Translations under genes and position numbers: made by a program | Part shown: positions 18,963 to 31,993 of the stretch, piece after piece | How the letters are laid out: each line of letters opens with the position of its first letter | Position numbering within the stretch: position 1 is the first letter of the stretch | NCBI GenBank assembly: GCA_050012255.1 | Contig: JBEKHN010000002.1 | Span: forward strand, 96,001-160,000 | Reading direction: 5' to 3' | From: Candidatus Bathyarchaeia archaeon | GTDB lineage: Archaea > Thermoproteota > Bathyarchaeia > Bathyarchaeales > Bathycorpusculaceae | DNA length: 64,000 nt | Notes under the pieces: generated by a model | Seen by the model: the letters and a program-made list of their open reading frames with translations, nothing else | The model's database searches: none | Told to the model about the DNA's origin: nothing

Positions 18963-20849
18963 TCACACAAGTTGCGACATTGCAAAGGCGCATCTGAGAG
19001 CATAGTTCAAGCTCACCAACAACGCGGACAATATTATTAGAGTGCCGATCGACGATGATTTATCCGGGTGAGAATACCTTCGAACTACGCTGCTTGCGGC
19101 GATAAGGCCGAATGATTCGAAAACCGGCAGAGGGATGTTGAACAAGATGCTGCTCTGTATCACTGAAGCGGAGCCTAAGACAAAGAAGATGGATGAGCAA
19201 ACCAGCCAAGACATAAGATACCGATTCAGAGGTCTATCACTGTGAACTGCGACAAACCCGCCCAAGACCGCTAACGATAAAGCCATCGGGTTCACAAAAA
19301 AGCCATACATTGCCTGGAAAAACGTGTAGAGCGTGTTCGTCCAAAAAGACGTTAATGAGCCAATTGAAACTGTGCTCTGGGCAACTTGTAAGGTTTCAAA
19401 ATTTCCGACCGACCATCCTAAGGCGATATTTCTCAGCGCACCTACTATGATGTTAACCAAGATTATCACGAGTAAACCTTGAATTTCAAACCGTGAATCG
19501 CCTCCGAATCTTGCTCTGAAAAGTGTGAGGAGCAAGTACACGAACAGTATGCCCAGAGTCATCCCCCAAGTCAACGAATGTGTGAAAAGCAGAGAAATCG
19601 ACAGCAGAAGTGCGGTCAGCATTCTCGGATGCGATTTTTTCCTGAGAGAGCCGAAAAAGAAGCCCATAAACAGGTACGATTCGATGATTGCCATCCAATT
19701 CGACAGAGAGCCTGCGTACATTCCAACTGAAACGTTGAAAGAAGAAACCGACAGGAAGGCTGCTAAAGAAGCGACGAGATCGGAACCCAGTGCTTCTCGA
19801 GTGAAAAAATATGCTGCCAGAACCAACAGCGGCGCCAAAACCACTGGAAAGAACTCAGCGACCGTCAAGGCTGAGAGACCGCTAACATATTTTGCAAGAT
19901 ACATGGTAAATAGGCTTAGCGGTCGGTCCGGATTTTGGAAAAAGGAGTTCTTGAGAGCATTGAGCAGTCCTTCGTTCCCAAGGTTCAGCAGCCAAGTTCT
20001 ATAAGCATGTACGTCAACCCCGATTGGATGCATGTCCCCGTTTAATTCTGGCAGGTATGGGTAAACAGTCACTAGAAAAGAGAGGACAAAAGAGCACACG
20101 AGCAGAAGATACACGAGACGCTTGAGGTTGCGAACATTGGTCGGCCGGTCAATGTTTGGAGTAACCGGATCAAAAGAAAATCGCTTTGAGAACTTGTAAT
20201 GAAAGAAGGGCTTGGCGACCCATGAGAACAGGAATAGCACGGCTAATAACGGGGCCAGAGAACCGGTTAAGAGGAACATTTTGGTTTCCAAGTCTACTAC
20301 ATATCTGTAGCTTCCACCTTGGCTTAATTGCGGAAAAACTGGAAAAATAAGCCAGCAGATCAGGGATAAGAGTTCTATGACGATTATGATCAGAATCAAA
20401 TAGAAAACGATCATAGAGAGCGCTCTTCTGCGACTTGTTGACACAAATGGTTTAGGGCTGGTCAACCACCATGTTAACGCAAAAAAGCTGCCCAATACTA
20501 CCAGCAAATCCACCACTTGCATGAACGTGAAATACCCGGCAAAAAGTGCAAGAAGCGAAAGAAGAGAAATCGACTTGCGGGGCAACCGAATTGTTACGTA
20601 GACAATTGCTATGAAGTTGAGCGCATAAACCATCACACGATCATAGGTGCCGTTTATGAATTCAAAGTAGAGTCCGATGTCGGGACCGACAGTTAAGCTG
20701 ATGAGAATGTTGGCCACATGCGCCGCCCCGAAAAAGAAAAACAAGGCGACTAAGAACAAGTAAAGATCGGGTTTCCACGCTTTGCACGAGGCTAAAAACC
20801 CTCTACTCTGCATTTCTAACCCTGCGCCCCATGCTGGATATGCATCCAC
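18963..20849 (-). CDS. Polytopic membrane protein, possibly GT-C-fold glycosyltransferase-like
   Basis: More than 12 hydrophobic segments; luminal PIGVDVHAY and DRPLS motifs; LFTH..TW. Function inferred only. Confidence 0.55.
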   Translation of the reverse strand: MDAYPAWGAGLEMQSRGFLASCKAWKPDLYLFLVALFFFFGAAHVANILISLTVGPDIGLYFEFINGTYDRVMVYALNFIAIVYVTIRLPRKSISLLSLLALFAGYFTFMQVVDLLVVLGSFFALTWWLTSPKPFVSTSRRRALSMIVFYLILIIIVIELLSLICWLIFPVFPQLSQGGSYRYVVDLETKMFLLTGSLAPLLAVLFLFSWVAKPFFHYKFSKRFSFDPVTPNIDRPTNVRNLKRLVYLLLVCSFVLSFLVTVYPYLPELNGDMHPIGVDVHAYRTWLLNLGNEGLLNALKNSFFQNPDRPLSLFTMYLAKYVSGLSALTVAEFFPVVLAPLLVLAAYFFTREALGSDLVASLAAFLSVSSFNVSVGMYAGSLSNWMAIIESYLFMGFFFGSLRKKSHPRMLTALLLSISLLFTHSLTWGMTLGILFVYLLLTLFRARFGGDSRFEIQGLLVIILVNIIVGALRNIALGWSVGNFETLQVAQSTVSIGSLTSFWTNTLYTFFQAMYGFFVNPMALSLAVLGGFVAVHSDRPLNRYLMSWLVCSSIFFVLGSASVIQSSILFNIPLPVFESFGLIAASSVVRRYSHPDKSSSIGTLIILSALLVSLNYALRCAFAMSQLV

Positions 20850-21019
20850 CGCGCTACGTTAAGAGGCTTTCTAACATTTGAAAAGAGCATGGTGGCAAGA
20901 ACTAAAAGCCCTCTCTTTCCTTTCGGCTGAATTTTTGCAATCAACAGAAGACTTGATCGAACCAGAAATGGCAATACTTAAATACAATAAAGGTTGATAA
21001 CAGCACCCTGTGAGGAATC

Positions 21020-21256
21020 ATGCGAAGAAAACTGATACTCCTTGCAGTTGCGGCTGCTTTGTTTATGCTCTCAATCATAGCAAGCGTGCACGCCGCGGGA
21101 AGACAAGAGGATCATGAAATCGTAGTTTCTCCGACGGTTGGGGGAGAAGTCAGTCCAGCGAGCAGCGTAATGACGCTTACACTGGCGGCAGTCTTGGGCA
21201 TCGCTAGTGTCACATTTATGGTTGTGACTGCACTGATCCGCATTAAGAAAACTTAG
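21020..21256 (+). CDS. Small exported/membrane protein
   Basis: GAGG RBS, signal-peptide-like N-terminus, VGGE motif, C-terminal TM + basic tail. Confidence 0.6.
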   Translation: MRRKLILLAVAAALFMLSIIASVHAAGRQEDHEIVVSPTVGGEVSPASSVMTLTLAAVLGIASVTFMVVTALIRIKKT

Positions 21257-21631
21257 TCATCACACTCTAGTCTCAAGCGTTGCAAGATAGGCGCGCGCGA
21301 GTCCTCAACGGGCTCTGACTACGTAATTCTTTGCCAAACTCAACTCGCATGTCAGCTCAAGATGTAAATCGGGTAAATCCCATGGTCGTCTTGAGGCGCC
21401 TTGTGTTGGTAAAGTAACTCGCGCTGTGAACTCCATGTTGGAAACGGTGCTCCAGCTAACAAAAAACCACATGAGTATCCATTAAAGACAGCGTCAACGG
21501 TACTTGCTGCAGAAAAACCCTATTGGGTAGGCGTGTTAGACTGGTGAAAACGCGGAACAGGGAACTAACGTGCAGCCTGACTGTGCGCAGCTATATATGT
21601 CAGAGTCTAAGAATCCTAGTGAGGTTCAACT

Positions 21632-22402
21632 TTGCCCCTTCCACTGGTTGAGCGATCTAAAGAAGAGATAGCTAAAGCTATTCGAAAGAAAGTTGAAGCC
21701 ATAAACCGGGTCAGAGGGATTCGCCACCTCGATGTTCGAATAAGTGGGAAAAGACTTGACGTGGATATTCACGCGTTCTTGGACAATGCCCTCACAAGCG
21801 AGGACATGCACGGGGTTGCTCTTGACATTGAGAGAGTCGTGAGAAACGAGTATCCCAATGCGCGGGTTTCAGTCGACACGGAACCTCTTGGACCAGGCCA
21901 AAATGGTGTCTGGAAGGCCGTGAAGGATGCAGCGGAAGAAACAGCGGGTTCAAGGGGGGTTCACAACATTCACATTCAAAGAATTGACGGAAAACTGTAC
22001 GTCGATCTTCATCTGGAGGTAAGCGCGAACATGACGGTGAAAGAAGCGCACGATGTTGCTGAACAGGTCGAGGGCAAGATAAGGATAACTAAGCCAGAAA
22101 TATCAGAAGTAACTGTTCACATCGAATCAGCATCAGACCGCATCTCAAGAGAGTTGGCAGGGGTCGAAACCGAGCTGGAATCATCCATTAAGCATGTCGC
22201 GAAGCAATTTCCCGAAATCCAGAGTGTCTCAGGAATCAGGATTCGCAAAGCTGGCGAGGGCATACACTTGACTCTTCACTGTCGTTTCGAGCCTGAACTT
22301 GGCATAAAAAAAGCGCATGAAATCTCCAGCAAGCTTGAGAAAGCACTCAGAACTGCTTACCCAAAGATAACTAGAATAGATGTCCATGAAGAGCCGGCTT
22401 AG
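21632..22402 (+). CDS. Stand-alone protein of three tandem cation-efflux (CDF) C-terminal dimerisation (ZT_dimer) domains
   Basis: Three repeats ending VSVDTEP, VTVHIES and IDVHEEP with AHD/AHE helices; no TM segments; GAGG RBS before TTG. Confidence 0.75.
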   Translation: MPLPLVERSKEEIAKAIRKKVEAINRVRGIRHLDVRISGKRLDVDIHAFLDNALTSEDMHGVALDIERVVRNEYPNARVSVDTEPLGPGQNGVWKAVKDAAEETAGSRGVHNIHIQRIDGKLYVDLHLEVSANMTVKEAHDVAEQVEGKIRITKPEISEVTVHIESASDRISRELAGVETELESSIKHVAKQFPEIQSVSGIRIRKAGEGIHLTLHCRFEPELGIKKAHEISSKLEKALRTAYPKITRIDVHEEPA

Positions 22403-22447
22403 ATCACACCGATTTTTCTTCAATGCTCCGCATCGTTGCGGGTTGCG

Positions 22448-22472
22448 GATACTGTTAACTTAAAGGACATGA
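22448..22472 (+). repeat. Left terminal inverted repeat GATACTGTTAACTTAAAGGACATGA
   Basis: Matches the reverse complement of 29284-29308 at 22/25 positions. Confidence 0.92.
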
Positions 22473-22484
22473 GTTCATAAGTGC

Positions 22485-25025
22485 TTAGCTTAGAAATTTC
22501 TGCATGGAACTTTGATCCTGAAGTTTGAAGTCACTCAGTCGAACTAGTCTATTACTTAATGCTTGAACAGTTTGTTTAGAAGGTTTCTCGTTCAGAAAAT
22601 CGCTTAGTTCATCATACGTTATCATGTACCAATTGTATTTTTCTATCTCTTCTTTGAGGATGGGTTCATGTATTCTAGCTCTCAAAAAGCGTTTTCGCTC
22701 ATCAGGTATAACAATCACACGCAACAAATTTTGACTAAGGATATTGCTACCTCTGATTATTGCTTCTGATATTCCCGTTGTGTTTTCGACCTCGAATATG
22801 GCATTTGCATTGTTCTTTGAATAGTAAATCACATCAATTTTCTTAAGTCGATTCTGATTGACTGCTTGAAAGGGAAAAGAAGCTTGTCTGTAGCCATCAA
22901 TATCCGCATGTACTTCATACCCTAGATGTTTGCCAAGTTCTGCAAGATTCTTTACTATTACATCGTGTTCTTTGACTCTCATTTTATACTTTGGCTTGAG
23001 CATCCATTTCTTATCAGGCGTTTTAGTCGCATATTCTTCTAAAACCTCTCTAACACTCTGCGTATTTGGTGTAAGTGCGTTTGGAAATCTGATGAAGATT
23101 TCTTGGAGTACATCATCAAAAGTGACTTTAACTTTGTCATTTAGGATGTTTATAACAAGCTTTTCTACTCGTTCACGAAGGGGAGTGCTTTCCAAGTACG
23201 GTATTGTGCTAGGGTCTTTAAACCACCATCCGACACCTACTGGCTTTCCTTTCTTGTCGGGAATTGGTTTAAGCACAAAATCGATGTTAAGTCTATTCTT
23301 GAGGACTTCCTCTATGCCTTTCGACCCTCTTTTGTCCACAAAAAAGACACCTTGTTTATCCAATTCAGGTATTATACCATTGAGAATAAACGTGAATGGT
23401 GTAGGTTCTCCACGCTCAGCTATTATTTTCTTGGTTGTTTCGATGACTACTCGAAAGTATTTCTCTTTGCTAGTTTGTTCCTCAGTTACTTCTTTCTTGC
23501 GTTCGGGCTTCCTAAATCGAATGTAGTAGTCCCCGACTGCGCTTCCATATGGCTGCAATGATGCCTTTGCTGACCTCACTGCGGGAGGTTGATATATGAT
23601 CTTCTCCAACTCGAAACCAGCCATTTTGATAGCTGAGATGATTGAGTTCCATACATCAATATCCGTGCTGTGAAATGTAACCGTCAAGAAGTGATTGGGT
23701 TTCAAGACTTTGTAGATTTGACCGAAAGACGTTGAGAGCATTCTGTGGTAGTATTCAAAGTCCTTGTTCTGACCCCGATTGATTGTTACTTCTTCTTTCC
23801 ACCATTGGTCTACTATATCGCTGTACTGTTTTCCTAATATCCAAGCGACACGGATTAAATCGAGTTCGAAATACTGAATTGCTCCGCCATATGGAGGGTC
23901 AGTGAAAACATAATCAACCGAGTTCGGTGGAACCCTCTGAGTCAACTCAATCGAATTTACGCGCTCAATGTAGTAGTGATCTTGGTTATTCAGCAATTGC
24001 TCGAATGATTTAGCGCAAATCAGGTTTGAAGGTATACGCTCGTTTCTATTCTCAACTCCCCTCTTCATTGAGTGAAATCGGTTTTCAAATCTTGACCAGA
24101 CATCGAATTCACAGTGAACTGGGAGAATTAGATATTCAGGGACCGTCCAAGCAGGTCCTCCTGTAACGAAACCTCCCCTCCAAGGCACGAGACGACTTGC
24201 TTGCGGAACCATTGACGAGAACACATATAGCATTGCTTGTTTGGAGATTTTGTCCTCAATCCTAGAAATCTCATCATAAAGAAGTGCCAAGGCGTAGAGA
24301 TTTCGGGCAGTGTAAAGTTCCTCAATGTCTCCTGCTCTCCTTTTTGTTCCGAAAGGTCTATCACCATTGTAGAAGAAACGAATTTTTGGATACCACACTG
24401 TGTCGAGTTGTACTCTAACGGGCTTCAACTTGGGATTGCTTACTTTGGAGGTTCGTTGACAGTGAAGACATGAGACTTGGAGAAAAATCGGTTCCTCTCC
24501 TACAATCGGGACGTTCGCATAACTGAAATCTTGTTTACAGTGCGGGCATTTGTATATGTTCTGCTGTTTGCCCTTTGGTCTCCTTGCCTCAGCCATGAGT
24601 ATGCGCTCTCTGCAAGTAGGGCAGTTGACTACGTAGGACCATACGACATAACGTGTTATGCCTTGCTTGTGGCATATTGGGCATTCAAAGTTGTAGAGTT
24701 TCTCAATCGTCTCTCTAACATCTGCTTTTATTGCCTCGAACGCGTGGTCAAGTGCCGTAGTGTCCGTTGTCTGGATGGTGGCTTTCATAGTTAAGATTGA
24801 GAGTGGGTCTAGGTCAAAGCCAACTGCTCGACGACCAAGACGCACAGCTTCAAAAAGGGTTACTCCACTTCCTGCGAAACCGTCGAGAACGATTTCTCCC
24901 TCTTTTGAGTAGTGTTCGATATAATCCGCGACAACATTATGCGGCTTTCTAGCCCAATACTTGTGGGTCAGGTACATGGGAGGATGAGTCCTAGGAACCA
25001 ACGCGTGATTGATGTGAGTGACCAA
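22485..25025 (-). CDS. Amino-DNA methyltransferase with Zn-ribbon insert and C-terminal PD-(D/E)XK-like nuclease domain (putative R-M fusion)
   Basis: HKYWARKP; motif I VLDGFAGSG; several CxxC pairs; motif IV FTDPPYG; C-terminal KIDVIYY...IFEVEN. Confidence 0.8.
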   Translation of the reverse strand: MVTHINHALVPRTHPPMYLTHKYWARKPHNVVADYIEHYSKEGEIVLDGFAGSGVTLFEAVRLGRRAVGFDLDPLSILTMKATIQTTDTTALDHAFEAIKADVRETIEKLYNFECPICHKQGITRYVVWSYVVNCPTCRERILMAEARRPKGKQQNIYKCPHCKQDFSYANVPIVGEEPIFLQVSCLHCQRTSKVSNPKLKPVRVQLDTVWYPKIRFFYNGDRPFGTKRRAGDIEELYTARNLYALALLYDEISRIEDKISKQAMLYVFSSMVPQASRLVPWRGGFVTGGPAWTVPEYLILPVHCEFDVWSRFENRFHSMKRGVENRNERIPSNLICAKSFEQLLNNQDHYYIERVNSIELTQRVPPNSVDYVFTDPPYGGAIQYFELDLIRVAWILGKQYSDIVDQWWKEEVTINRGQNKDFEYYHRMLSTSFGQIYKVLKPNHFLTVTFHSTDIDVWNSIISAIKMAGFELEKIIYQPPAVRSAKASLQPYGSAVGDYYIRFRKPERKKEVTEEQTSKEKYFRVVIETTKKIIAERGEPTPFTFILNGIIPELDKQGVFFVDKRGSKGIEEVLKNRLNIDFVLKPIPDKKGKPVGVGWWFKDPSTIPYLESTPLRERVEKLVINILNDKVKVTFDDVLQEIFIRFPNALTPNTQSVREVLEEYATKTPDKKWMLKPKYKMRVKEHDVIVKNLAELGKHLGYEVHADIDGYRQASFPFQAVNQNRLKKIDVIYYSKNNANAIFEVENTTGISEAIIRGSNILSQNLLRVIVIPDERKRFLRARIHEPILKEEIEKYNWYMITYDELSDFLNEKPSKQTVQALSNRLVRLSDFKLQDQSSMQKFLS

Positions 25026-25109
25026 ACTTTCCCCCTTGCTGATAATTGTATTGACAGCATAAACCTTTTATACTTGATATATCGTATCTGATATATAGGC
25101 GATACCTAT

Positions 25110-25994
25110 ATGATATGCAAATACTGTCAGTCTGAAAATGTCGTGAAGCATGGCAAGGCAAACGGCAAGCAGAGGTTTCTCTGTAAGAACTGTTGCCACA
25201 AGTTCTTCGAAGGTTCAGACTTTCCGAGAATGAGAAATAAATCACACATTATCTCTTCAAGTATTGACATGTACTTTGAAGGCTTGAGCGTCAGGAAAAT
25301 CCGAACTCAAGTTGAAAAATTATTTGGTGTGTCCGTTAGCCAAGTCGCAATTTGGAAATGGATAACTAAGTATTCGAGATTTGTCACTCGCTACGTTGAA
25401 ACGCTGAACCCTCAGCTTCAAGGTATCTATCATGTCGATGAAACCGCAATCAAATGCTCTGGGGTTCAAAAATGGTTTTGGGAAATCATAGACGAACAAA
25501 CAAAGTTTCTTGTAGCTGGTCATCTTTCAGCCTCTAGAACCACCGAGGACGCCGTGCAGTTATTTGAGAAGAGCATCAAGGTAGCTAAGAGGAAGCCAAT
25601 TTCGATTTACTGTGACGGATTGCCAGCTTACGTTGATGGCTACAACAAGGTTTTCTACACGATGAAGAAAGAAGGCAGACCCGAACTAATCAGAAGAGTA
25701 GGCATAAGAAACATACACAACCAAAACGCAGTAGAACGATTACACGGCACTCTCAAGGACAGAATCAAACCCGCTAGAGGGTTGAAAGGTGAAGAGACAG
25801 TTAGAACTCTTTTGGAAGGTTGGATTATCCATTATAATTACGTCCGCAAACATCAGACTTTGAAAATGACTCCAGCACAAGCTTGTGGCCTAAACATAAA
25901 GAACGATTGGCACTTGCTAGTGAAAGAAGCAACAAAGTATGATGCAACACACAAGGAATCAAATAGAAAACCAATAGAGGTAATGGCTACATGA
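25110..25994 (+). CDS. DDE transposase, IS6-like catalytic core with IS1-type N-terminal zinc ribbon
   Basis: CKYC...VVKHG....KQRFLCKNC; GLSVRKI HTH; HVDET (D), YCDGLPAY (D), QNAVERLHGTLKDR (E); HYNYVRKH. Confidence 0.9.
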   Translation: MICKYCQSENVVKHGKANGKQRFLCKNCCHKFFEGSDFPRMRNKSHIISSSIDMYFEGLSVRKIRTQVEKLFGVSVSQVAIWKWITKYSRFVTRYVETLNPQLQGIYHVDETAIKCSGVQKWFWEIIDEQTKFLVAGHLSASRTTEDAVQLFEKSIKVAKRKPISIYCDGLPAYVDGYNKVFYTMKKEGRPELIRRVGIRNIHNQNAVERLHGTLKDRIKPARGLKGEETVRTLLEGWIIHYNYVRKHQTLKMTPAQACGLNIKNDWHLLVKEATKYDATHKESNRKPIEVMAT

Positions 25995-26194
25995 AGAGAA
26001 TCTTGGTCAGTTTTCCAGAAGGAGTATTTGATATGGTTCATGGCTTGAAGGGCGAACTAGGCGAGAGCGATAGCGAAGTTGTACGAAACATAGTCGTAGC
26101 TTACCTTTCTGAACAAGGATTTTTTAGCAAAATCAGCATAAGAGGTGAAGGTAGCCAGTACAGGAGGAAAACAAATGAAGAAAAACAAAAGTGA
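25991..26194 (+). CDS. Ribbon-helix-helix (CopG-like) small protein
   Basis: MKRILVSFP beta-strand, then helices and SDSEVVRNIV; ATGA overlap with the transposase stop. Confidence 0.7.
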   Translation: MKRILVSFPEGVFDMVHGLKGELGESDSEVVRNIVVAYLSEQGFFSKISIRGEGSQYRRKTNEEKQK

Positions 26195-26360
26195 AATCAG
26201 AGAGGCAGAAGATGAGATTGACTTACTAGACGACATGTTAACTTCATTGGTAGAACTGTTAGAAGAGAAAGGCATCCTAACTCAAGCGGAATGGGAAAGG
26301 AAAATCAAGGAAAGAATCAAGGGAAAACCCTCAACAAGCATCAGGGACCTCAAGGAATGA
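26175..26360 (+). CDS. Small helical hypothetical protein
   Basis: GGAGGA RBS before ATG 26175; LTSLVELLEEKGILTQAEWE. Confidence 0.6.
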   Translation: MKKNKSEIREAEDEIDLLDDMLTSLVELLEEKGILTQAEWERKIKERIKGKPSTSIRDLKE

Positions 26361-26966
26361 TTCGTTCTGTTTTTCTTCTATCGGACAATTTGTGGAACAC
26401 AGACCGCCACAGGTCACTATTTCCTGCAAGACATCTCGTGTAAGCTTACAATCGTTTCTCGCGCAAACATGCTGGGCCAGACGATATTTTCTTACAGGTA
26501 TCATATGTCGGTCATCTGTTCCAAAAAAACGAGACAGACATTTTTTCTTCAAAGTTGCTACCGAGTAGAATCTTGGTTTGGTCGTAAATTTCTTAGCTTT
26601 TTTCAAGATAGTGACCGTCTGTTCTTCAACTTTGATTAATCCTACTTTACTAATCTCGAATTTTGGAGCATGCTTATCCGTTGCAACATATGCATAATCA
26701 ATGTAATCCATTATTCGATCTATTTGTTGTTCTGCTCTTGCAAGATTATCTCTTGATGATTTGACCTCAACATAGGTAAGTAATTGGTTCTTCAACAACA
26801 TCAAGTCAACATCAGACAAAACGCTTCCCCATGCAATGTTTAAGCTAGAGTGAGGGATCACTTCATAACCCCTCACTGAGAAGTATTCGGTCAGCGTCTT
26901 GATAATTTTTTCTTCATACTTACCCAGACGCTTGGTTGATTTGTGTATATTGCGAGCCAAGATCAT
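26331..26966 (-). CDS. PD-(D/E)XK nuclease-like protein (sce7726/MmcB-like)
   Basis: YEE helix, DVDLMLL, YVEVKSSRDNLARA..Q...Y.DYAYV; C-terminal C-x3-C-x3-C cluster; starts 2 nt after the S8 stop. Confidence 0.7.
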   Translation of the reverse strand: MILARNIHKSTKRLGKYEEKIIKTLTEYFSVRGYEVIPHSSLNIAWGSVLSDVDLMLLKNQLLTYVEVKSSRDNLARAEQQIDRIMDYIDYAYVATDKHAPKFEISKVGLIKVEEQTVTILKKAKKFTTKPRFYSVATLKKKCLSRFFGTDDRHMIPVRKYRLAQHVCARNDCKLTRDVLQEIVTCGGLCSTNCPIEEKQNESFLEVPDAC

Positions 26967-26968
26967 GA

Positions 26969-29209
26969 TTAACGGATAACCCCTAGTTGCTTGTTCAGAT
27001 CGTACACCTGTTGAGTGAGCGGTACATCACGTGCGAGAGTCTTCGAATTTATCAAAATTGCGCAACCATACCGTATTGTCGTTGCTTGTTGGTGTTCTGC
27101 TAGCATGTCTGCCGTAAGCCTAGGAGTTATGTAAAAATCCCAAGTGGCTTCCATGCTTTGTGATTCGTAAGCCCATTTGAAAATCTTCATGTTTGATTTT
27201 CTGTAAAGTTCTTTCTTGTTACTAGGGTCTGGACCACCATAGTCTCTGGCAGTCTTTCTCGCCCTAACTAAGAGGTAAGTATTGAGATGCGGCTTCGCCT
27301 CTCTAAAGTGGTTATCTGAGTGAACGAGAAACATCTTTATACAATTGACTAACTTAGGAACTGAAACTGAAATCTTGGCGGTAAAGTCAATGTTAAATTT
27401 GCTATCACTTAGCGTATCACGAAGGGGGATCGTTCCCTCAGCACAAACAAGTGCTTGAAGGTCATAGTTGAAATCATTAAGGGATTTTAGTTCGCCAAAT
27501 CCTCGGCATCCTTGTACTTCTCCGCTGGACAATGCCATAGCTATTGCTTTCAGAGTCTCGGCGTTCTCAAATCTGTGACCATACCGTGCATATATCTCTG
27601 CCAGATGATACACAAACAATGGTGCAGAAAAACTCGTCCCTAAGAAGCCATCAAAGCTTTGCCCATTTCTGTCAATGGATGCCACGCCCAACACCGTGCC
27701 GTCTTTACAATAATTCCCTCCATGTTCGATAAACTCAGGTTTTTGACAATCATATAGAAAACCATTATTGATCCCGCATCTCGTAAAAGGTGCCAATTCG
27801 TTCATTCGTGAGATTGAATTAGGTGCTTCTTTTTTGGCAATTGCCCCTATTGCTAAAGCGTTAACTGCTTGAGCAGGGTCTTTGACTGGATGGTGCAAAA
27901 TGTAAGATGCGCATGGGACTCCTTTGTATGCATAATCATTCACTACATCGGACTCAATGTTTCCTGTGGAAAATGCCGCACAAATGTTATTCTTTTGTAT
28001 CCATTTATCAATCGAAGCGGTAATCGCATCATTGTATCTTTCAAAGACTATCGACGAAACAAAGATGTGCGAACGCTTAGGGTTTGCCTCACTTGAATAT
28101 TTTGAAATCGCTAACTGATACCCCTCAGGATAAAGTCTCCTATCTGTGTCAGAGTAGATTTTATATGAAATTACCCTTGCTTTTGGAATAGACGAGTTTT
28201 CTCCGAATGCCGTCAAATACGCGATCGGCGTACCATGTCCTCGTTCTCCGAAATCATCGTTGAAATCTGGAAATCGCCTAAATCTGTCCCTTCCGATTAA
28301 CAATCCAGTAAGTTGCGGTATCTCGTTTACGCCAGAGTCGAGTACACATACTATCGGAAGATTATCATACGCGGTTCTATCAGAACCCACCGAAGATGCC
28401 CTGCCCCTAATACTCTGATTTGAGCGAGATCGTTTATTCTTTCTAGAAAGAGACATTTTCCCCAGCAAACCTTTGGGGATTTCGCTTACCCTAAACACAT
28501 AATTGGATACTTTCAACAACTGTTCGGTCGATTCTTGATTAAGAGAGGTCAATACGAAATCATTGTCACAACAACTTTGAGCATTGACATCCGAAAGTTT
28601 AAGGTTCTCCATTAGTTTGCTTGCGTATTCTTGTTTTTTCTCAGGCGAAAGGTTGGGAATCAACTCAATGATAACATCCTTTGGTTCTTTTGACCATTGA
28701 GAATCTCTCAGGTTTTCGGATACTTGTTCCTCCAAGAATAAAGGACTAACTCTTTTTATTGTTTTGAAGTAGACCCTAGAATAGTTTTTTCTCGCCACAA
28801 GACTCATCAACTTGGACAAAGGACAAGAGATAAGCAACTTAGTGTGTTCTAGATTCAAGTAGCAAAGTATTTCAGCAGAAAGATGCTCTAGAACAGTTAA
28901 CGTATTATCGTAAAAAACTTGTTTCCAGATTTCGGAAGGGTCATCTTTACGAACGAAATGACTCTCTACACCCAAAACGACATAAGCTGTATATTTATCT
29001 CGCAACTGTTTTGCTTCAATGGCTGAGACAGTATTCAAGATTTGTTCTCTCATTTCCTTATTGACCCATTCTTTCTCTTCATCCCTGACAGCTTCGTATT
29101 CAGCTTCAACAGGTCCTTTAATCCAAGCAGGTCTTTTCGGACTTTTTTCATCGTTTGTGGTTGCTTTCACAAAAATAAAGCTGTCAGAGTGAGAGGCACT
29201 ATCTACCAA
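26969..29209 (-). CDS. S8 family (subtilase) serine peptidase, cytoplasmic, IetS/Y4bN-like
   Basis: Triad VCVLDSG, GHGTPIA, GTSFSAP; STGN oxyanion; PAQAVNALAIGA; KPEFIEHGGN; long N-terminal region; no signal peptide. Confidence 0.85.
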   Translation of the reverse strand: MVDSASHSDSFIFVKATTNDEKSPKRPAWIKGPVEAEYEAVRDEEKEWVNKEMREQILNTVSAIEAKQLRDKYTAYVVLGVESHFVRKDDPSEIWKQVFYDNTLTVLEHLSAEILCYLNLEHTKLLISCPLSKLMSLVARKNYSRVYFKTIKRVSPLFLEEQVSENLRDSQWSKEPKDVIIELIPNLSPEKKQEYASKLMENLKLSDVNAQSCCDNDFVLTSLNQESTEQLLKVSNYVFRVSEIPKGLLGKMSLSRKNKRSRSNQSIRGRASSVGSDRTAYDNLPIVCVLDSGVNEIPQLTGLLIGRDRFRRFPDFNDDFGERGHGTPIAYLTAFGENSSIPKARVISYKIYSDTDRRLYPEGYQLAISKYSSEANPKRSHIFVSSIVFERYNDAITASIDKWIQKNNICAAFSTGNIESDVVNDYAYKGVPCASYILHHPVKDPAQAVNALAIGAIAKKEAPNSISRMNELAPFTRCGINNGFLYDCQKPEFIEHGGNYCKDGTVLGVASIDRNGQSFDGFLGTSFSAPLFVYHLAEIYARYGHRFENAETLKAIAMALSSGEVQGCRGFGELKSLNDFNYDLQALVCAEGTIPLRDTLSDSKFNIDFTAKISVSVPKLVNCIKMFLVHSDNHFREAKPHLNTYLLVRARKTARDYGGPDPSNKKELYRKSNMKIFKWAYESQSMEATWDFYITPRLTADMLAEHQQATTIRYGCAILINSKTLARDVPLTQQVYDLNKQLGVIR

Positions 29210-29283
29210 GCGGTCTCCCTACTACATGTTAACCGATTGCTTTTAAAACTTATCACAGCAGTAGTAGCTGTGGTTTTCATTTT

Positions 29284-29308
29284 TCATGTCCCTTTAGTTA
29301 ACAGTGTC
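29284..29308 (-). repeat. Right terminal inverted repeat (reverse complement GACACTGTTAACTAAAGGGACATGA)
   Basis: Followed immediately by the target duplication CGGGTTGCG. Confidence 0.92.
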
Positions 29309-29452
29309 CGGGTTGCGAAATGCCTATATCTGTCTCTAGCCGTTAATGGAAGCTACAAACCCCATTATGCGCGATAAGGTGGTCCTGATCGAGGCGGATT
29401 CAATAATACGGCAAATGAGAAAACAATCGACGCACGTAAAGACTGCTGGTCT

Positions 29453-31993
29453 ATGTCCCCTGCGGATGCCTACCATTCCGTTGAAACCAATGAGAACGGT
29501 CTGTCTGAACAAGAAGCTCAACAACGCCTAAAGACATACGGATACAATGAGTTGGAAAGACCGAAATTCGGCTGGGCTCCGATTCTTATTAGACAATTCA
29601 AGAATCCGATATTTGTGATTCTAATCGCATGTGCCATCGTATCAGCGCTCTTCGCCACGCTTGAGCAGGCAATATCCATACTTTTGATGATTGCGATAGC
29701 CGTGGTCTTGGGCTTCGTTAACGAGTACAGAGCTGAGAAGACCGTTCACGACCTTCAAAAGCGCGTATCTATCAGGGCTGTCGTTATAAGAGACAGTAAG
29801 CCCTCCGAAATTGAATCGAGGCTTCTTGTCCCAGGCGACCTTGTCTCCTTCTACGTGGGAGACATCGTCCCAGCCGACATGAGAATAGTACAATCCATCG
29901 ACCTTCACGTTAATGAGGCAGCACTTACCGGAGAATCTTTTCCTGTTGAAAAGACGTCTGAAAGCCTCGATGTTCAACACCCCACGCCGCAGCAGTTGAC
30001 AAACTACATGTTCATGGGCAGCGTGGTGGCAAACGGGAGCGGTCGAGGCATCGTCGTGTCGACAGGAAAAAACTCGGAGTTCGGATCGATATCCAAGAGC
30101 CTAATCCGATCTCACCCTGAAACCCCCTTTCAAAAGGGTGTCAGGAGTTACGGAAACATGCTTCTCACACTGACACTGGCGCTAGTATTGGGAATATTCT
30201 CAATCAACGCCGCCATGGGTCATAACCCGGTCGATTCTCTGCTTTTCTCTCTCGCAGTTGCCGTCGGGCTCGTGCCCGAGCTGATGCCCGCCATCGTAAC
30301 GATCAGCCTCTCTCAAGGGGCGAGGAAAATGTCGAGGCTGAAGGTCATCGTGAAACGCCTAGTTTCGATAGAGGACTTCGGCAACATGGATGTCCTGTGC
30401 ACTGACAAAACAGGGACGCTCACAGAGGGCAAGATCTCCCTAAAGGACTACTGTTCGCCTGGCGCAGACAAAGATCCGAGAGTCATCCCCTATTCGCTGC
30501 TCTGCAACACCGCGATCCAAGGGGAGAAGATCACTGGCAACCCAATGGATGTGGCGATCTGGGAGTATGCTATCAAGAATGGCGCACAAGAAGGTGTGAC
30601 ATCCTACGGTAGGACGAGCGAGATTCCATTTGACTACCAGCGGAGAATGATGTCGGTGGTAGTTAGAAAGGATAGCGATTTCTTCCTCATCACTAAGGGT
30701 GCTCCAGAATCAGTTCTCTCCAGATGTGACTACTCTGAGACTCTGGGTAAGAAGGAACCAATAGGCGACGTTCTGAAGTCAATTCGTGCCAAGTTTTCCG
30801 ATCTCTCAATGCAGGGATACCGTGTTTTAGCAATCGCAAGTCGAAGCATAGACCAGAAGAAAGCGTACACGGTTGAAGACGAGGCGAACCTAACGTTTCT
30901 AGGCCTCCTAATATTCACTGACCCCTGTAAAGAGGATGCCCATCAAGCGATCATAAAGCTGAAGGAGATGGGGGTTGACGTCAAGATACTCACAGGCGAC
31001 AACGAGCTCGTAGCGAGAAAAATATGTGAGGAAGTAGATGTTCCCGTTAGAAAAATAGTATCTGGTTCAGAATTAACTCAGATGAGCTCGACCGAAATTA
31101 AGAAGGCAGCAGAAGAGGCCACAATTTTCGCTAGGATCACCCCAGAACAGAAGCTAGACATTATCAAAGCCCTAAAGGAGAACAAGCATGTGGTGGGCTT
31201 CATGGGTGACGGAGTGAATGATGCTCCAGCCCTCTACGAGGCAGACGTGGGCATATCGGTCGACACAGCGGTTGATGTTTCTAAAGACGCAGCGGACATT
31301 GTGCTTCTGGAAAAAGATCTGCCGGTGCTAGTAGACGGTATTAATGAGGGCAGAAAGATCTTCGGCAACACCATAAAGTATGTTCTAATGGGAACGAGTT
31401 CGAACTTTGGAAACATGTTCAGCGCCGCAGCAGCCTCTATCTTCCTTCCATTTCTCCCGATGTTGCCGATTCAGATACTCTTCATGAACCTGCTGTACGA
31501 CATGTCTAACATGACGATACCAACCGACAACGTTGATGAAGAGTACACCAAGACGCCAAGAAAATGGGACATGAGCTTCGTGCGAAAGTACACGCTGTTC
31601 TTCGGCCCATTCAGTTCCGTCTATGACTTTCTAACCTACGGCATCATGCTTTTCGTCTTCGGATGTTGGGCAGGAACAAATGGTAGCTACCTAGCAGCAC
31701 TGTTCCAAAGTGCATGGTTCGTAGAATCATTCTGGACAGAGGTCTTAATCATGTTCGTCATCAGGACTAGGCGCATCCCCTTCTTCACAAGCCGTCCAGG
31801 GAAGTGGCTAGCAGGATTCTTAATAGGGTTCGTCGCGTTCGGAACCATATTGCCATTCACACCTTTCGGCGGCTTCTTGGGAATGGTGCCGCTTCCAGCC
31901 GAATTCTGGGTTCTGGTCGCGCTTATGACAGTTACCTATCTGTTTCTTGTGGATGCAGGCAAAGTGTTCTTCTACAAGATATGCAAGTTTTAA
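29453..31993 (+). CDS. mgtA: Magnesium-translocating P-type ATPase
   Basis: TGESFPVEK, AVGLVPELMP, DVLCTDKTGTLT, PFDYQRRMMSV, SSNFGNMFS, NLLYD, P.DNVD. Confidence 0.92.
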   Translation: MSPADAYHSVETNENGLSEQEAQQRLKTYGYNELERPKFGWAPILIRQFKNPIFVILIACAIVSALFATLEQAISILLMIAIAVVLGFVNEYRAEKTVHDLQKRVSIRAVVIRDSKPSEIESRLLVPGDLVSFYVGDIVPADMRIVQSIDLHVNEAALTGESFPVEKTSESLDVQHPTPQQLTNYMFMGSVVANGSGRGIVVSTGKNSEFGSISKSLIRSHPETPFQKGVRSYGNMLLTLTLALVLGIFSINAAMGHNPVDSLLFSLAVAVGLVPELMPAIVTISLSQGARKMSRLKVIVKRLVSIEDFGNMDVLCTDKTGTLTEGKISLKDYCSPGADKDPRVIPYSLLCNTAIQGEKITGNPMDVAIWEYAIKNGAQEGVTSYGRTSEIPFDYQRRMMSVVVRKDSDFFLITKGAPESVLSRCDYSETLGKKEPIGDVLKSIRAKFSDLSMQGYRVLAIASRSIDQKKAYTVEDEANLTFLGLLIFTDPCKEDAHQAIIKLKEMGVDVKILTGDNELVARKICEEVDVPVRKIVSGSELTQMSSTEIKKAAEEATIFARITPEQKLDIIKALKENKHVVGFMGDGVNDAPALYEADVGISVDTAVDVSKDAADIVLLEKDLPVLVDGINEGRKIFGNTIKYVLMGTSSNFGNMFSAAAASIFLPFLPMLPIQILFMNLLYDMSNMTIPTDNVDEEYTKTPRKWDMSFVRKYTLFFGPFSSVYDFLTYGIMLFVFGCWAGTNGSYLAALFQSAWFVESFWTEVLIMFVIRTRRIPFFTSRPGKWLAGFLIGFVAFGTILPFTPFGGFLGMVPLPAEFWVLVALMTVTYLFLVDAGKVFFYKICKF

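Follow-up and report, generated by a model that had tools for sequence, protein, structure and literature searches.

Positions 22448–29308 of the window, the 64,000-nucleotide stretch of a Candidatus Bathyarchaeia archaeon analysed here, are very probably a unit transposon ("transporter IS"), intact and autonomous, from an IS6-like group found in archaea. The unit is 6,861 bp long and has the features by which such elements are recognised: one transposase, one pair of terminal inverted repeats (TIRs), a target site duplication (TSD) and passenger genes inside. We consider it confirmed that this 6.9-kb Bathyarchaeia element is a real, recently inserted transposon carrying a methylase and a protease-nuclease pair. 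It is part of a widespread set of archaeal transposons with cargo, of which the papers searched contain no description. Its features are listed in Table 1.

Table 1. Features of the element, in window coordinates.
Feature	Positions	Strand	Basis
Left TSD copy, 9 bp, CGGGTTGCG	22439..22447		Read from sequence; single copy in the G001 empty site
Left TIR, GATACTGTTAACTTAAAGGACATGA	22448..22472	+	Best pair of the inverted-repeat scan; kin to the C21 TIRs and to those of 50+ short-clade elements
DNA methyltransferase, 846 aa, left-arm cargo	22485..25025	-	Pfam, PADLOC, PDB
Transposase (tnpA), 294 aa; N-terminal CxxC..CxxC zinc ribbon and IS6-like DDE domain (D110, D169, E209, K216)	25110..25994	+	Pfam, NCBIfam, alignment
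orfA, 67 aa, conserved; ATG overlaps the transposase stop codon	25991..26194	+	Alignment, tblastn
orfB, 61 aa from ATG (open from GTG 26145), conserved helical hairpin	26175..26360	+	Alignment, tblastn, AF2
sce7726-family/YraN-like (nuclease-like) protein, 211 aa, right-arm cargo	26331..26966	-	NCBIfam
IetS-like S8 (subtilase) peptidase, 746 aa, right-arm cargo	26969..29209	-	Pfam, PADLOC, NCBIfam
Right TIR, reverse complement GACACTGTTAACTAAAGGGACATGA	29284..29308	-	Sequence and inverted-repeat scan
Right TSD copy, 9 bp, CGGGTTGCG	29309..29317		Sequence and G001 empty site

Ends and layout of the element

The two 25-bp TIR arms are identical at 22 positions, with mismatches at positions 3, 14 and 17, and they are the longest and best of the 25 inverted-repeat pairs found when positions 21000–31000 were scanned. 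Among the ORFs scanned, a single one matched a transposase; its distances to the left and right ends are 2,662 bp and 3,314 bp. The first-pass annotation had described a distant TIR pair and TSD around one mid-element transposase; its coordinates, the identity of the arms and the flanking 9-mer were all borne out. The element contains eight ORFs, and those at the edges approach the TIRs closely. The methylase ORF ends 12 bp from the left TIR, as had been noted from the sequence, and the protease ORF starts 75 bp from the right one. Differences between the arms at 3 of 25 positions are a point against the explanation preferred here.

A fixed 23-nt TIR pattern had no match in the window, because a run of A/G is offset between the two arms; a looser pattern did match across the whole genome. 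No internal TIR-like copies were found inside the element by the inverted-repeat scan and the pattern search of the window, and a genome search found one copy of the whole element in the host. The G+C content is 41.1% in the element, compared with 48.2% in its contig (C2), which marks its composition as foreign. The region 20000–31000 has no tRNA or Rfam family, and tRNA-targeted integration was therefore rejected.

Empty site and recent movement

On the Bathyarchaeia chromosome the element is flanked by a gene encoding a ZT_dimer domain (zinc-transporter family) on one side and by one for a P-type ATPase on the other. In a complete genome of the same genus (G001) this site is uninterrupted, with flanks 95% and 92% identical to those in the window. 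The left-flank match ends at position 1587756 of contig C1 of that genome and the right-flank match begins at 1587748; this overlap of 9 bp means that the site holds one copy of CGGGTTGCG. The earlier proposal of a recently inserted unit transposon is thereby supported, and of the two TSD lengths that it had left open, 9 bp and 7 bp, the overlap fixes the former. Contigs of four metagenome runs from three studies (X1, X2, X3 and X4) likewise join across the element, with joints that skip 6,870–6,871 bp, so that the empty site suggested as a check is found in both sources.

The filled site is also represented: an X1 contig of 7,134 bp covers both junctions with 0 differences. Copies of positions 25078–29308 that are about 97% identical occur in X3 and X4, with the same TIR tip adjoining other flanks, and contigs of these runs have loose ends at the right TIR, at 29305 and 29308. 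The left arm of this variant departs from that of the window element at 25078. The methylase arm (22676–25027) is almost uncovered in X2–X4, although these are contig data, which say nothing on absence. The assemblies and contigs showed neither an intermediate of transposition nor an excised form nor another identical copy, so the transposase at 25110–25994 is presumed rather than seen to be active.

Related elements in the host genome and in other archaea

The host genome contains three further elements of the same kind. Two of them (C21:713–3576 and C16:52865–53802) have related TIR copies and different cargo, and the third (C1:265763–272332) belongs to a sister clade; a search for such copies had been proposed in the first-pass annotation. 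The C21 element is 2,864 bp long, with perfect 26-bp TIRs, a 9-bp TSD and a transposase 73% identical to that of the window, and its TIRs match the right TIR of the window at 18 of 25 positions. The C16 element is 938 bp long and has hybrid TIRs and a 9-bp TSD without a transposase, trans-mobilisation therefore occurs. A loose 16-nt TIR regular expression run over the genome returned mostly noise, yet it revealed the GGTTCTGTTAAC end family.

Distant TIR/TSD pairs around homologous transposases had also been predicted, and they are present at 15 of 20 loci in relatives and more widely in public genomes. The public-genome scan was seeded with an alignment of nine short-clade sequences, the long clade is therefore under-sampled. 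A homologue was scored as enclosed if the TIRs on its two sides agreed at 16 or more of 22 positions and were flanked by an exact 8- or 9-bp TSD. This holds for 55 of the 84 transposase homologues from other archaea, compared with 1 of 84 loci when the downstream flank was reversed as a control, which excludes chance. The remaining 29 have no detectable pair, including 11 with at least 5 kb on both sides. The enclosed elements are 1.9–8.0 kb long (median 4.0 kb), and the smallest relatives (1,870–2,044 bp) have the three-gene core.

The delimited set comprises 71 elements, the window element and 70 relatives. TSD length follows the transposase clade, being 9 bp in the short clade and 8 bp in the SWIM-finger clade. 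Among 53 short-clade elements, 46 have a TSD of 9 bp and five one of 8 bp, with one 8/9 match and one element with none; among 16 from the long SWIM clade, 14 have 8 bp, with one 8/9 match over 9 bp and one with none. One locus (L050) has a long-clade transposase within short-clade-type TIRs and a 9-bp TSD (8/9), so either elements are mobilised in trans or the rule does not always hold. At other sites, related elements were found in tandem arrays.

Transposase and core genes

The transposase is IS6-like by both Pfam and NCBIfam, which provides the family classification that had been called for. It matches DDE_Tnp_IS240 (5.6e-20, 72.3 bits; cut-off 27) and transpos_IS6 (124.0 bits, just below the cut-off of 125), and its N-terminus has an NCBIfam match to the IS1/IS1595 Zn domain. 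D110, D169 and E209 are invariant in an alignment of 19 transposases. In a plasmid collection its closest annotated relatives are the clostridial ISCpe7-type "IS6 family" transposases, to which it is 26–31% identical over 76–90% of the query. No relative in the PDB was found by sequence search. A homologue that is 75% identical is labelled "IS6 family transposase" by NCBI and nothing more, in keeping with the expectation that ordinary annotation sees a lone IS gene.

The conserved core of the element is tnpA-orfA-orfB. By tblastn, orfA is present in 41 of the 71 elements and orfB in 52, that is in 51 of the 53 short-clade elements and in the transposase-less C16 element. Neither matches a Pfam family. 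The sequence pattern of orfA resembles a small ribbon-helix-helix DNA-binding protein, and it is probably a small DNA-binding regulator translationally coupled to tnpA; a weak AF2 model with two helices (pLDDT 63) neither shows nor excludes the ribbon-helix-helix fold. The model of orfB has a pLDDT of 88, with helices at residues 2–31 and 37–48.

Cargo

The left-arm methyltransferase matches Pfam N6_N4_Mtase (1.3e-20), the PADLOC models MTase_II PDLC03367 (1.7e-66, residues 10–515) and PglX-like (1.8e-53), and, weakly, beta-class N4/N6 methylases in the PDB. About 330 residues past residue 515 fall outside the best methylase match. No restriction nuclease was recognised beside the methylase, nor a nuclease domain in its C-terminal part.

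The 211-aa protein of the right arm matches NCBIfam NF033832 sce7726_fam (1.1e-11, 45 bits; cut-off 70) and YraN (9e-05), and has no Pfam or PADLOC match. Its neighbour matches Pfam Peptidase_S8 (1.1e-17), PADLOC IetS (1.9e-28) and NCBIfam IteS_antiphage, the last at 76.9 bits, far under the cut-off of 900. The peptidase thus resembles IetS of the IetAS anti-phage system, as defined by the PADLOC and NCBIfam models. Unlike that system, the element is without the IetA ATPase and the partner of the peptidase is the sce7726/YraN-like protein; among five element proteins searched with PADLOC there was no IetA match, only IetS-like hits.

Judged by these family matches, the cargo most likely consists of restriction-modification (RM) or defence-type modules. 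The first-pass annotation had called it antiviral. That word is an inference from family names; the IetS-like protease is without an IetA partner, and no restriction nuclease was recognised next to the methylase. Across the 71 delimited elements, DNA methylase and/or restriction domains occur in 21, and other cargo includes PIN, NYN, HicAB, Panacea, GmrSD and ABC-3C parts. Complete RM pairs do occur in relatives, as in L093, which has a D12 MTase with a SacI-type REase.

Comparison with known systems

Members of the IS6/IS26 family such as IS26, IS257 and IS6100 have TIRs of about 14 bp, starting GG and with G at position 7, and are single-gene ISs 0.7–1.76 kb long (PMC7986276, PMC6807381); the family TSD is 8 bp (PMC7986276). 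In the sections of these reviews used here, ISDsp3 is the sole family member listed with a passenger gene (PMC7986276, PMC6807381). The window element shares with them an IS240/IS6-type DDE domain, in which K/R follows the E by seven residues, and TIRs with G at positions 1 and 7 and an ACTGTT stretch, the one that the first-pass annotation had quoted for IS26. It differs in its 25-bp TIR starting GA (the TIRs of related elements begin GG), its 9-bp TSD (the SWIM sister clade gives 8 bp, in 14 of 16), the N-terminal zinc ribbon of its transposase, its core of three genes and its size, 6.9 kb with 5 kb of cargo in a single unit. The TSD, the three-gene core and the NCBIfam IS6 score below the cut-off set it apart from canonical IS6/IS26 members.

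In the long clostridial IS6-like elements of the ISCpe7 group, the IS6-like DDE transposase likewise carries a zinc-finger extension at its N-terminus. These elements form clade VII (PMC6807381) or clade h (PMC7986276), and Harmer and Hall hold that ISCpe7-type and archaeal ISs are to be split from IS6/IS26. Unlike the window element, they are bacterial, 1.2–1.3 kb long, cargo-free and have one gene.

In transporter ISs and unit transposons of the Tn3 family, as here, a single transposition module and its passengers lie between one TIR pair and move together. Tn7-like transposons reportedly carry defence cargo, and the window element resembles them in being rich in defence and RM genes. It differs from all of these in its transposase family, its archaeal host and the placing of cargo on either side of a central core, and no resolvase or targeting proteins were recognised in it. 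An identity with aloposons, known archaeal cargo transposons, was rejected; aloposons use tRNA genes as integration sites and contain giant genes (PMC8813620). The portions consulted of a 2026 archaeal IS survey make no mention of passenger genes or Bathyarchaeia (PMC13343696).

Alternative explanations

The element might be non-autonomous, its outer TIRs served in trans by the transposase of another element and its internal gene a passenger or inactive. The C21 transposase, with its similar TIRs, is at hand in the same genome, and the transposase-less C16 element and the mixed pairing at L050 point the same way. However, the internal ORF is complete and has every invariant residue, the length of the TSD varies with the clade of the resident transposase in 60 of 69 transposase-bearing elements (46 short-clade with 9 bp, 14 long-clade with 8 bp), and the tnpA-orfA-orfB core is kept in 51 of 53 short-clade elements. 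We regard this explanation as improbable.

There is no space at the ends of the element for decayed IS copies, given the 12 bp and 75 bp between cargo ORFs and TIRs. It is thus very improbable that the unit is what remains of a composite or pseudo-compound transposon whose two flanking IS copies decayed to leave the outer ends, even though IS6/IS26 elements usually mobilise cargo in this way (PMC7986276, PMC6807381) and related elements do occur in tandem elsewhere. The sole transposase is central, TIR-like copies were not found internally, and the same unit architecture recurs in 55 independent elements. Low G+C and defence-like genes would be typical of any genomic island, but an island acquired otherwise, for example by a site-specific recombinase, that happens to enclose an unrelated IS and has repeats arising by chance, is extremely unlikely: the element has no other recombinase, what is missing from the empty site is precisely the stretch from TIR to TIR and one 9-mer, the reversed-flank control gave 1 of 84, and the TIR sequences are common to elements with homologous transposases.

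Mechanism and significance

On insertion into the Bathyarchaeia chromosome the element duplicated 9 bp of target. The zinc-ribbon DDE transposase would bind both 25-bp TIRs and cut at their tips, the ends would be joined to a target opened by staggered cuts 9 bp apart, and repair would then yield the duplication. The reaction may be replicative, as in IS6/IS26 elements, and pass through a cointegrate that is later resolved by recombination. The cargo on both sides of the tnpA-orfA-orfB core, out to the TIRs, would travel with the core.

A wider reading is possible but, taken as one joint claim, somewhat doubtful. The elements may form a distinct archaeal unit-transposon family, whose marks are TIRs of 25 bp, a TSD of 9 bp and the tnpA-orfA-orfB core, while a SWIM finger and a TSD of 8 bp mark a sister clade. 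The family would be a main vehicle for RM, toxin-antitoxin and other defence genes in Bathyarchaeia, methanogens, Nitrososphaeria and Archaeoglobi, would gain or swap cargo by insertion beside the ends of a resident element followed by fusion, and would choose targets by a TAAA motif 6–9 bp from the duplicated 9-mer. The cargo swap is suggested by tandem arrays with one common TSD, by hybrid TIRs and by an exchange of arms whose breakpoint is constant, 32 bp upstream of tnpA. The papers searched contain no description of such a family.

To our knowledge, few cargo-carrying DNA transposons have been described in archaea. In the window element and its 70 relatives an IS6-like transposase routinely carries 1–6 kb of cargo, often methylases, restriction or toxin genes, and the hosts include uncultured Bathyarchaeia and also cultured methanogens such as Methanolobus vulcani B1d (L122). 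This gives a concrete path for the flow of defence genes among archaea. In MAGs such islands can be delimited by a simple rule, the presence of a TIR pair and a TSD of 8 or 9 bp, and the compact transposase-plus-TIR system is a candidate genetic tool.

Boundaries of the element and its empty site

Window positions 20900-31000 were used as the query in a DNA search of 20 relatives and the window's own genome. In G001, a complete genome of the same genus, the left flank is matched at 95% identity up to C1:1587756 and the right flank at 92% from 1587748. The two matches overlap by 9 bp, a single CGGGTTGCG, and the alignment shows G001 to be uninterrupted there. The element therefore occupies 22448-29308 (6,861 bp), and its target-site duplication (TSD) is 9 bp. 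The first-pass annotation had read from the sequence both terminal inverted repeats (TIRs), their identity at 22 of 25 positions and the CGGGTTGCG that borders the element on each side, and all of this is borne out exactly in the window; of the two TSD lengths that it offered, 9 bp stands and 7 bp does not. It had also proposed a search for the empty site, which is found in G001.

Contigs from four public metagenome runs (X1-X4, three studies), compared with window 21500-30300, also bridge the gap; X1 possibly represents the sample of origin. Joints of 22438-22441 to 29309-29312, with 6,870-6,871 bp skipped, occur in all four runs, and one element-skipping contig in X4 is 3,207 bp long. A contig of 7,134 bp in X1 spans both element junctions with 0 differences.

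The TIR pair ranks first among 25 inverted-repeat pairs in a repeat search of window 21000-31000. The coding content reaches close to both ends, with 12 bp between the left TIR and the methylase stop and 75 bp between the protease start and the right TIR. The element has a G+C content of 41.1% versus 48.2% for its contig, and is present as one copy in its genome.

Features of the window element and its neighbours
Feature	Position	Strand	Annotation
ZT_dimer-domain protein gene	21632-22402		left neighbour
Left TIR	22448-22472		GATACTGTTAACTTAAAGGACATGA
846-aa DNA methyltransferase	22485-25025	-	Pfam N6_N4_Mtase 1.3e-20; PADLOC MTase_II 1.7e-66
294-aa transposase (tnpA)	25110-25994	+	Pfam DDE_Tnp_IS240 5.6e-20; NCBIfam transpos_IS6 124.0 bits vs cut-off 125; N-terminal IS1/IS1595-type zinc-binding domain
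orfA	25991-26194		ATG overlaps tnpA stop; consensus MKKxLVSLPxG...SDTxRTIIxxWLSEKGYL
orfB	26175-26360		consensus ...DxLDxMLTSLVELLEEKGILTQEEWE
211-aa sce7726/YraN-like protein	26331-26966	-	
746-aa S8 peptidase	26969-29209	-	PADLOC IetS 1.9e-28; NCBIfam IteS 76.9 bits vs cut-off 900
Right TIR	29284-29308		reverse complement of GACACTGTTAACTAAAGGGACATGA
P-type ATPase gene	29453-31993		right neighbour

Outside the element, upstream of the ZT_dimer gene, a sequence of about 80 nt (window 21485-21565) has 13 further copies, 75-93% identical, in the genome and relatives. It has no tRNA or Rfam match and may be a small repeat or an RNA.

Related elements in the same genome

The genome contains two further transposase homologues. 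One, on contig C21, is 73% identical to the window transposase and sits in a 2,864-bp element (C21:713-3576) with perfect 26-bp TIRs, GGTACTGGTGCGTTAAGGGACATGAA, which share 18 of 25 positions with the right TIR of the window element, and a 9-bp TSD, CTTTCAACA. The other, on contig C1, is 41% identical and has 390 aa, with an additional SWIM-like N-terminus and a zinc ribbon. Its element is 6,570 bp long (C1:265763-272332, locus L065:763-7332), has TIRs beginning GGTTCTGTTAAC and an 8-bp TSD, CTTTATCA, and encodes an Eco57I/N6_Mtase protein of 1,038 aa along with two unknown ORFs. On this comparison the TIRs of the window element belong to its transposase.

A 938-bp element on contig C16 (C16:52865-53802, locus L066:865-1802) has a 9-bp TSD, TCTCGTCGG, and no transposase. 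Its two TIRs are of different subtypes and a remnant of orfB is kept. This element adjoins the tip of another end beginning GGTTCTGG. It resembles a chimeric derivative that was mobilised in trans.

Recurrence of the architecture and TSD length

Transposase homologues (E <= 1e-20) are found in 17 of 61 genomes searched, the window's own included. The first-pass annotation had suggested looking for TIR/TSD pairs around such homologues, and these recur: a TIR pair surrounds the transposase in 15 of 20 loci fetched from those genomes. A pattern scan based on the short-clade alignment (transposases like the window's 294-aa enzyme), with one genome per species, gave 79 loci, mostly from Bathyarchaeia MAGs; other labels are Woesearchaeota, Methanobacterium, Methanolobus vulcani B1d, Methanoperedens, Archaeoglobus sp., Nitrososphaeria and Thermoplasmata. 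The criteria of an automatic scan were a terminal base pair, a TIR match of at least 16/22 and an exact TSD of 8 or 9 bp. Of 84 transposase hits, 55 lie within such a pair (TIR match at least 20/22 in 48 of the 55), against 1/84 in a control with the downstream flank reversed. At least 5 kb is present on both sides in 11 of the 29 hits missed. The scanned elements are 1,870-7,988 bp long (median 4,003), and three of at most 2,044 bp are essentially core-only. After six already in the first set were dropped, 71 distinct elements were available in total.

TSD length covaries with transposase clade. Among 53 short-clade elements the TSD is 9 bp in 46, 8 bp in five, 9 bp with one mismatch in one and absent in one. 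The long clade, whose transposases have a SWIM finger (n=16), has no exact 9-bp TSD; 14 are 8 bp, one is 9 bp with one mismatch and one element has none. The locus L050:5018-12134 (genome G042) is an exception to this link, with a long-clade SWIM transposase within short-clade-type TIRs (GATACTGTTAACTTATTTGTCATG) and a 9-bp TSD matching at 8/9.

The conserved core

Two small genes, below ordinary ORF cut-offs, lie directly 3' of tnpA. Of the 71 elements, 41 have a tblastn match to orfA and 52 have one to orfB; these matches cover 51/53 elements of the short clade, the C16 remnant and 0/16 long-clade elements. A Pfam search gave no family for either protein. OrfB is predicted with confidence (pLDDT 88) to form a helical hairpin, and the prediction for orfA is weak, with two helices (pLDDT 63). 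From the pattern of its sequence orfA may be read as a ribbon-helix-helix regulator; the roles of both proteins are presumptive. In an alignment of 19 sequences the transposases share a CxxC...CxxC ribbon, D110, D169 and E209 are invariant, and in the window enzyme K216 is seven residues after E209. The transposition chemistry of the window element is likewise putative.

Cargo

Cargo ORFs of at least 70 aa (first set) or 100 aa (second set) were scanned against Pfam. DNA methyltransferase and/or restriction domains are present in 9/22 first-set and 12/49 second-set elements, figures that are plain counts and do not by themselves show enrichment. They include Eco57I-type and N6_N4_Mtase-Mrr fusions, M plus S subunits, GmrSD, and a D12 methylase with a SacI-type endonuclease. 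Other cargo comprises HicAB, PIN, NYN, SocA/Panacea, ParB_N-DUF488, AAA_14-DUF4143 and HNH/DUF2326/ABC-3C parts, and many ORFs have no Pfam family.

The methylase gene named in the first-pass annotation is present in the window element, where a defence role of the cargo is suggested by family names only. IetA is absent from the element, and nothing recognised as a nuclease adjoins the methylase; an antiviral function of the cargo is conjectural.

The largest element found, L093:142-8129 (7,988 bp), nearly fills its contig; its cargo includes a ParA-like ATPase and both halves of a complete type II system, a D12 methylase and a SacI-type endonuclease. Proteasome-subunit-like ORFs adjoin long-clade transposases at L054:10988-11872, L140:8603-9445 and L141:8467-9465.

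Possible modularity and target sites

X3 and X4 contain contigs with about 97% identity to 25078-29308 (depths 113 and 5.5); two examples cover 25899-28430 (78 differences) and 25992-29308 (101 differences). These relatives stop at the TIR tip, with two different foreign flanks beyond. Their homology begins at 25078, 32 bp ahead of the tnpA ATG; further upstream at least two other sequences take the place of the methylase arm. Such variant forms exist, their frequency not being implied, and 25078 may be a recurrent breakpoint for left-arm exchange.

In genome G007 (L057:3180-3590) about 370 bp ending in a C21-type TIR tip lie immediately before CGCGGTTGCG, at the same intergenic spot as window 22402-22447, and the left flank lacks about 45 bp. 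This variant also appears in X2, as a loose end. This spot appears to have served as a target on two occasions.

Two different elements lie in tandem at L037:6179-15689 with one copy of their common TSD between them. Exactly one TSD copy (CTTTTGAAG or CTTTATCA) separates the elements of this array and of L047:7805-19129 and L048:7023-12363, which suggests insertion beside resident element ends. The CTTTATCA site is filled in three genomes (the window's, G001 and G007); on its left lies ..CAGAACC, which is similar to a TIR tip.

Of 47 nine-bp sites, 14 have TAAA at -9..-6 and eight have its mirror image, TTTA, at +14..+17, on a background of about 1% per position. The motif lies 6-9 bp outside the TSD and is never on both sides of one site; the window's own site (22429-22447, 29309-29327) is without it. 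This one-sided motif could reflect a TATA-box-like or TIR-like target preference.

Relationship to IS6/IS26 elements

In the parts of two published accounts drawn on here (PMC7986276, PMC6807381), IS6/IS26 elements are 0.7-1.76 kb long, with TIRs of about 14 bp that start with GG and have G at position 7. They make 8-bp duplications, move as cointegrates and carry cargo in pseudo-compound structures; ISDsp3 is the only member given there with a passenger gene, and zinc-finger extensions characterise the long clostridial clade. In the plasmid collection searched, ISCpe7-type transposases of that clade are the nearest annotated relatives of the window transposase, at 26-31% identity. NCBI annotation gives the name 'IS6 family transposase' to a homologue with 75% identity.

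The literature searched, with subscription journals, ISfinder, TnCentral and supplementary files outside its scope, describes no archaeal IS6-like unit transposons with cargo. The earlier proposal of a 6.9-kb unit transposon is supported by the empty site, the 9-bp TSD and the recurrence across the family. The window element is an intact, presumably autonomous unit transposon from an IS6-like group of archaeal elements, one undescribed in the literature searched.
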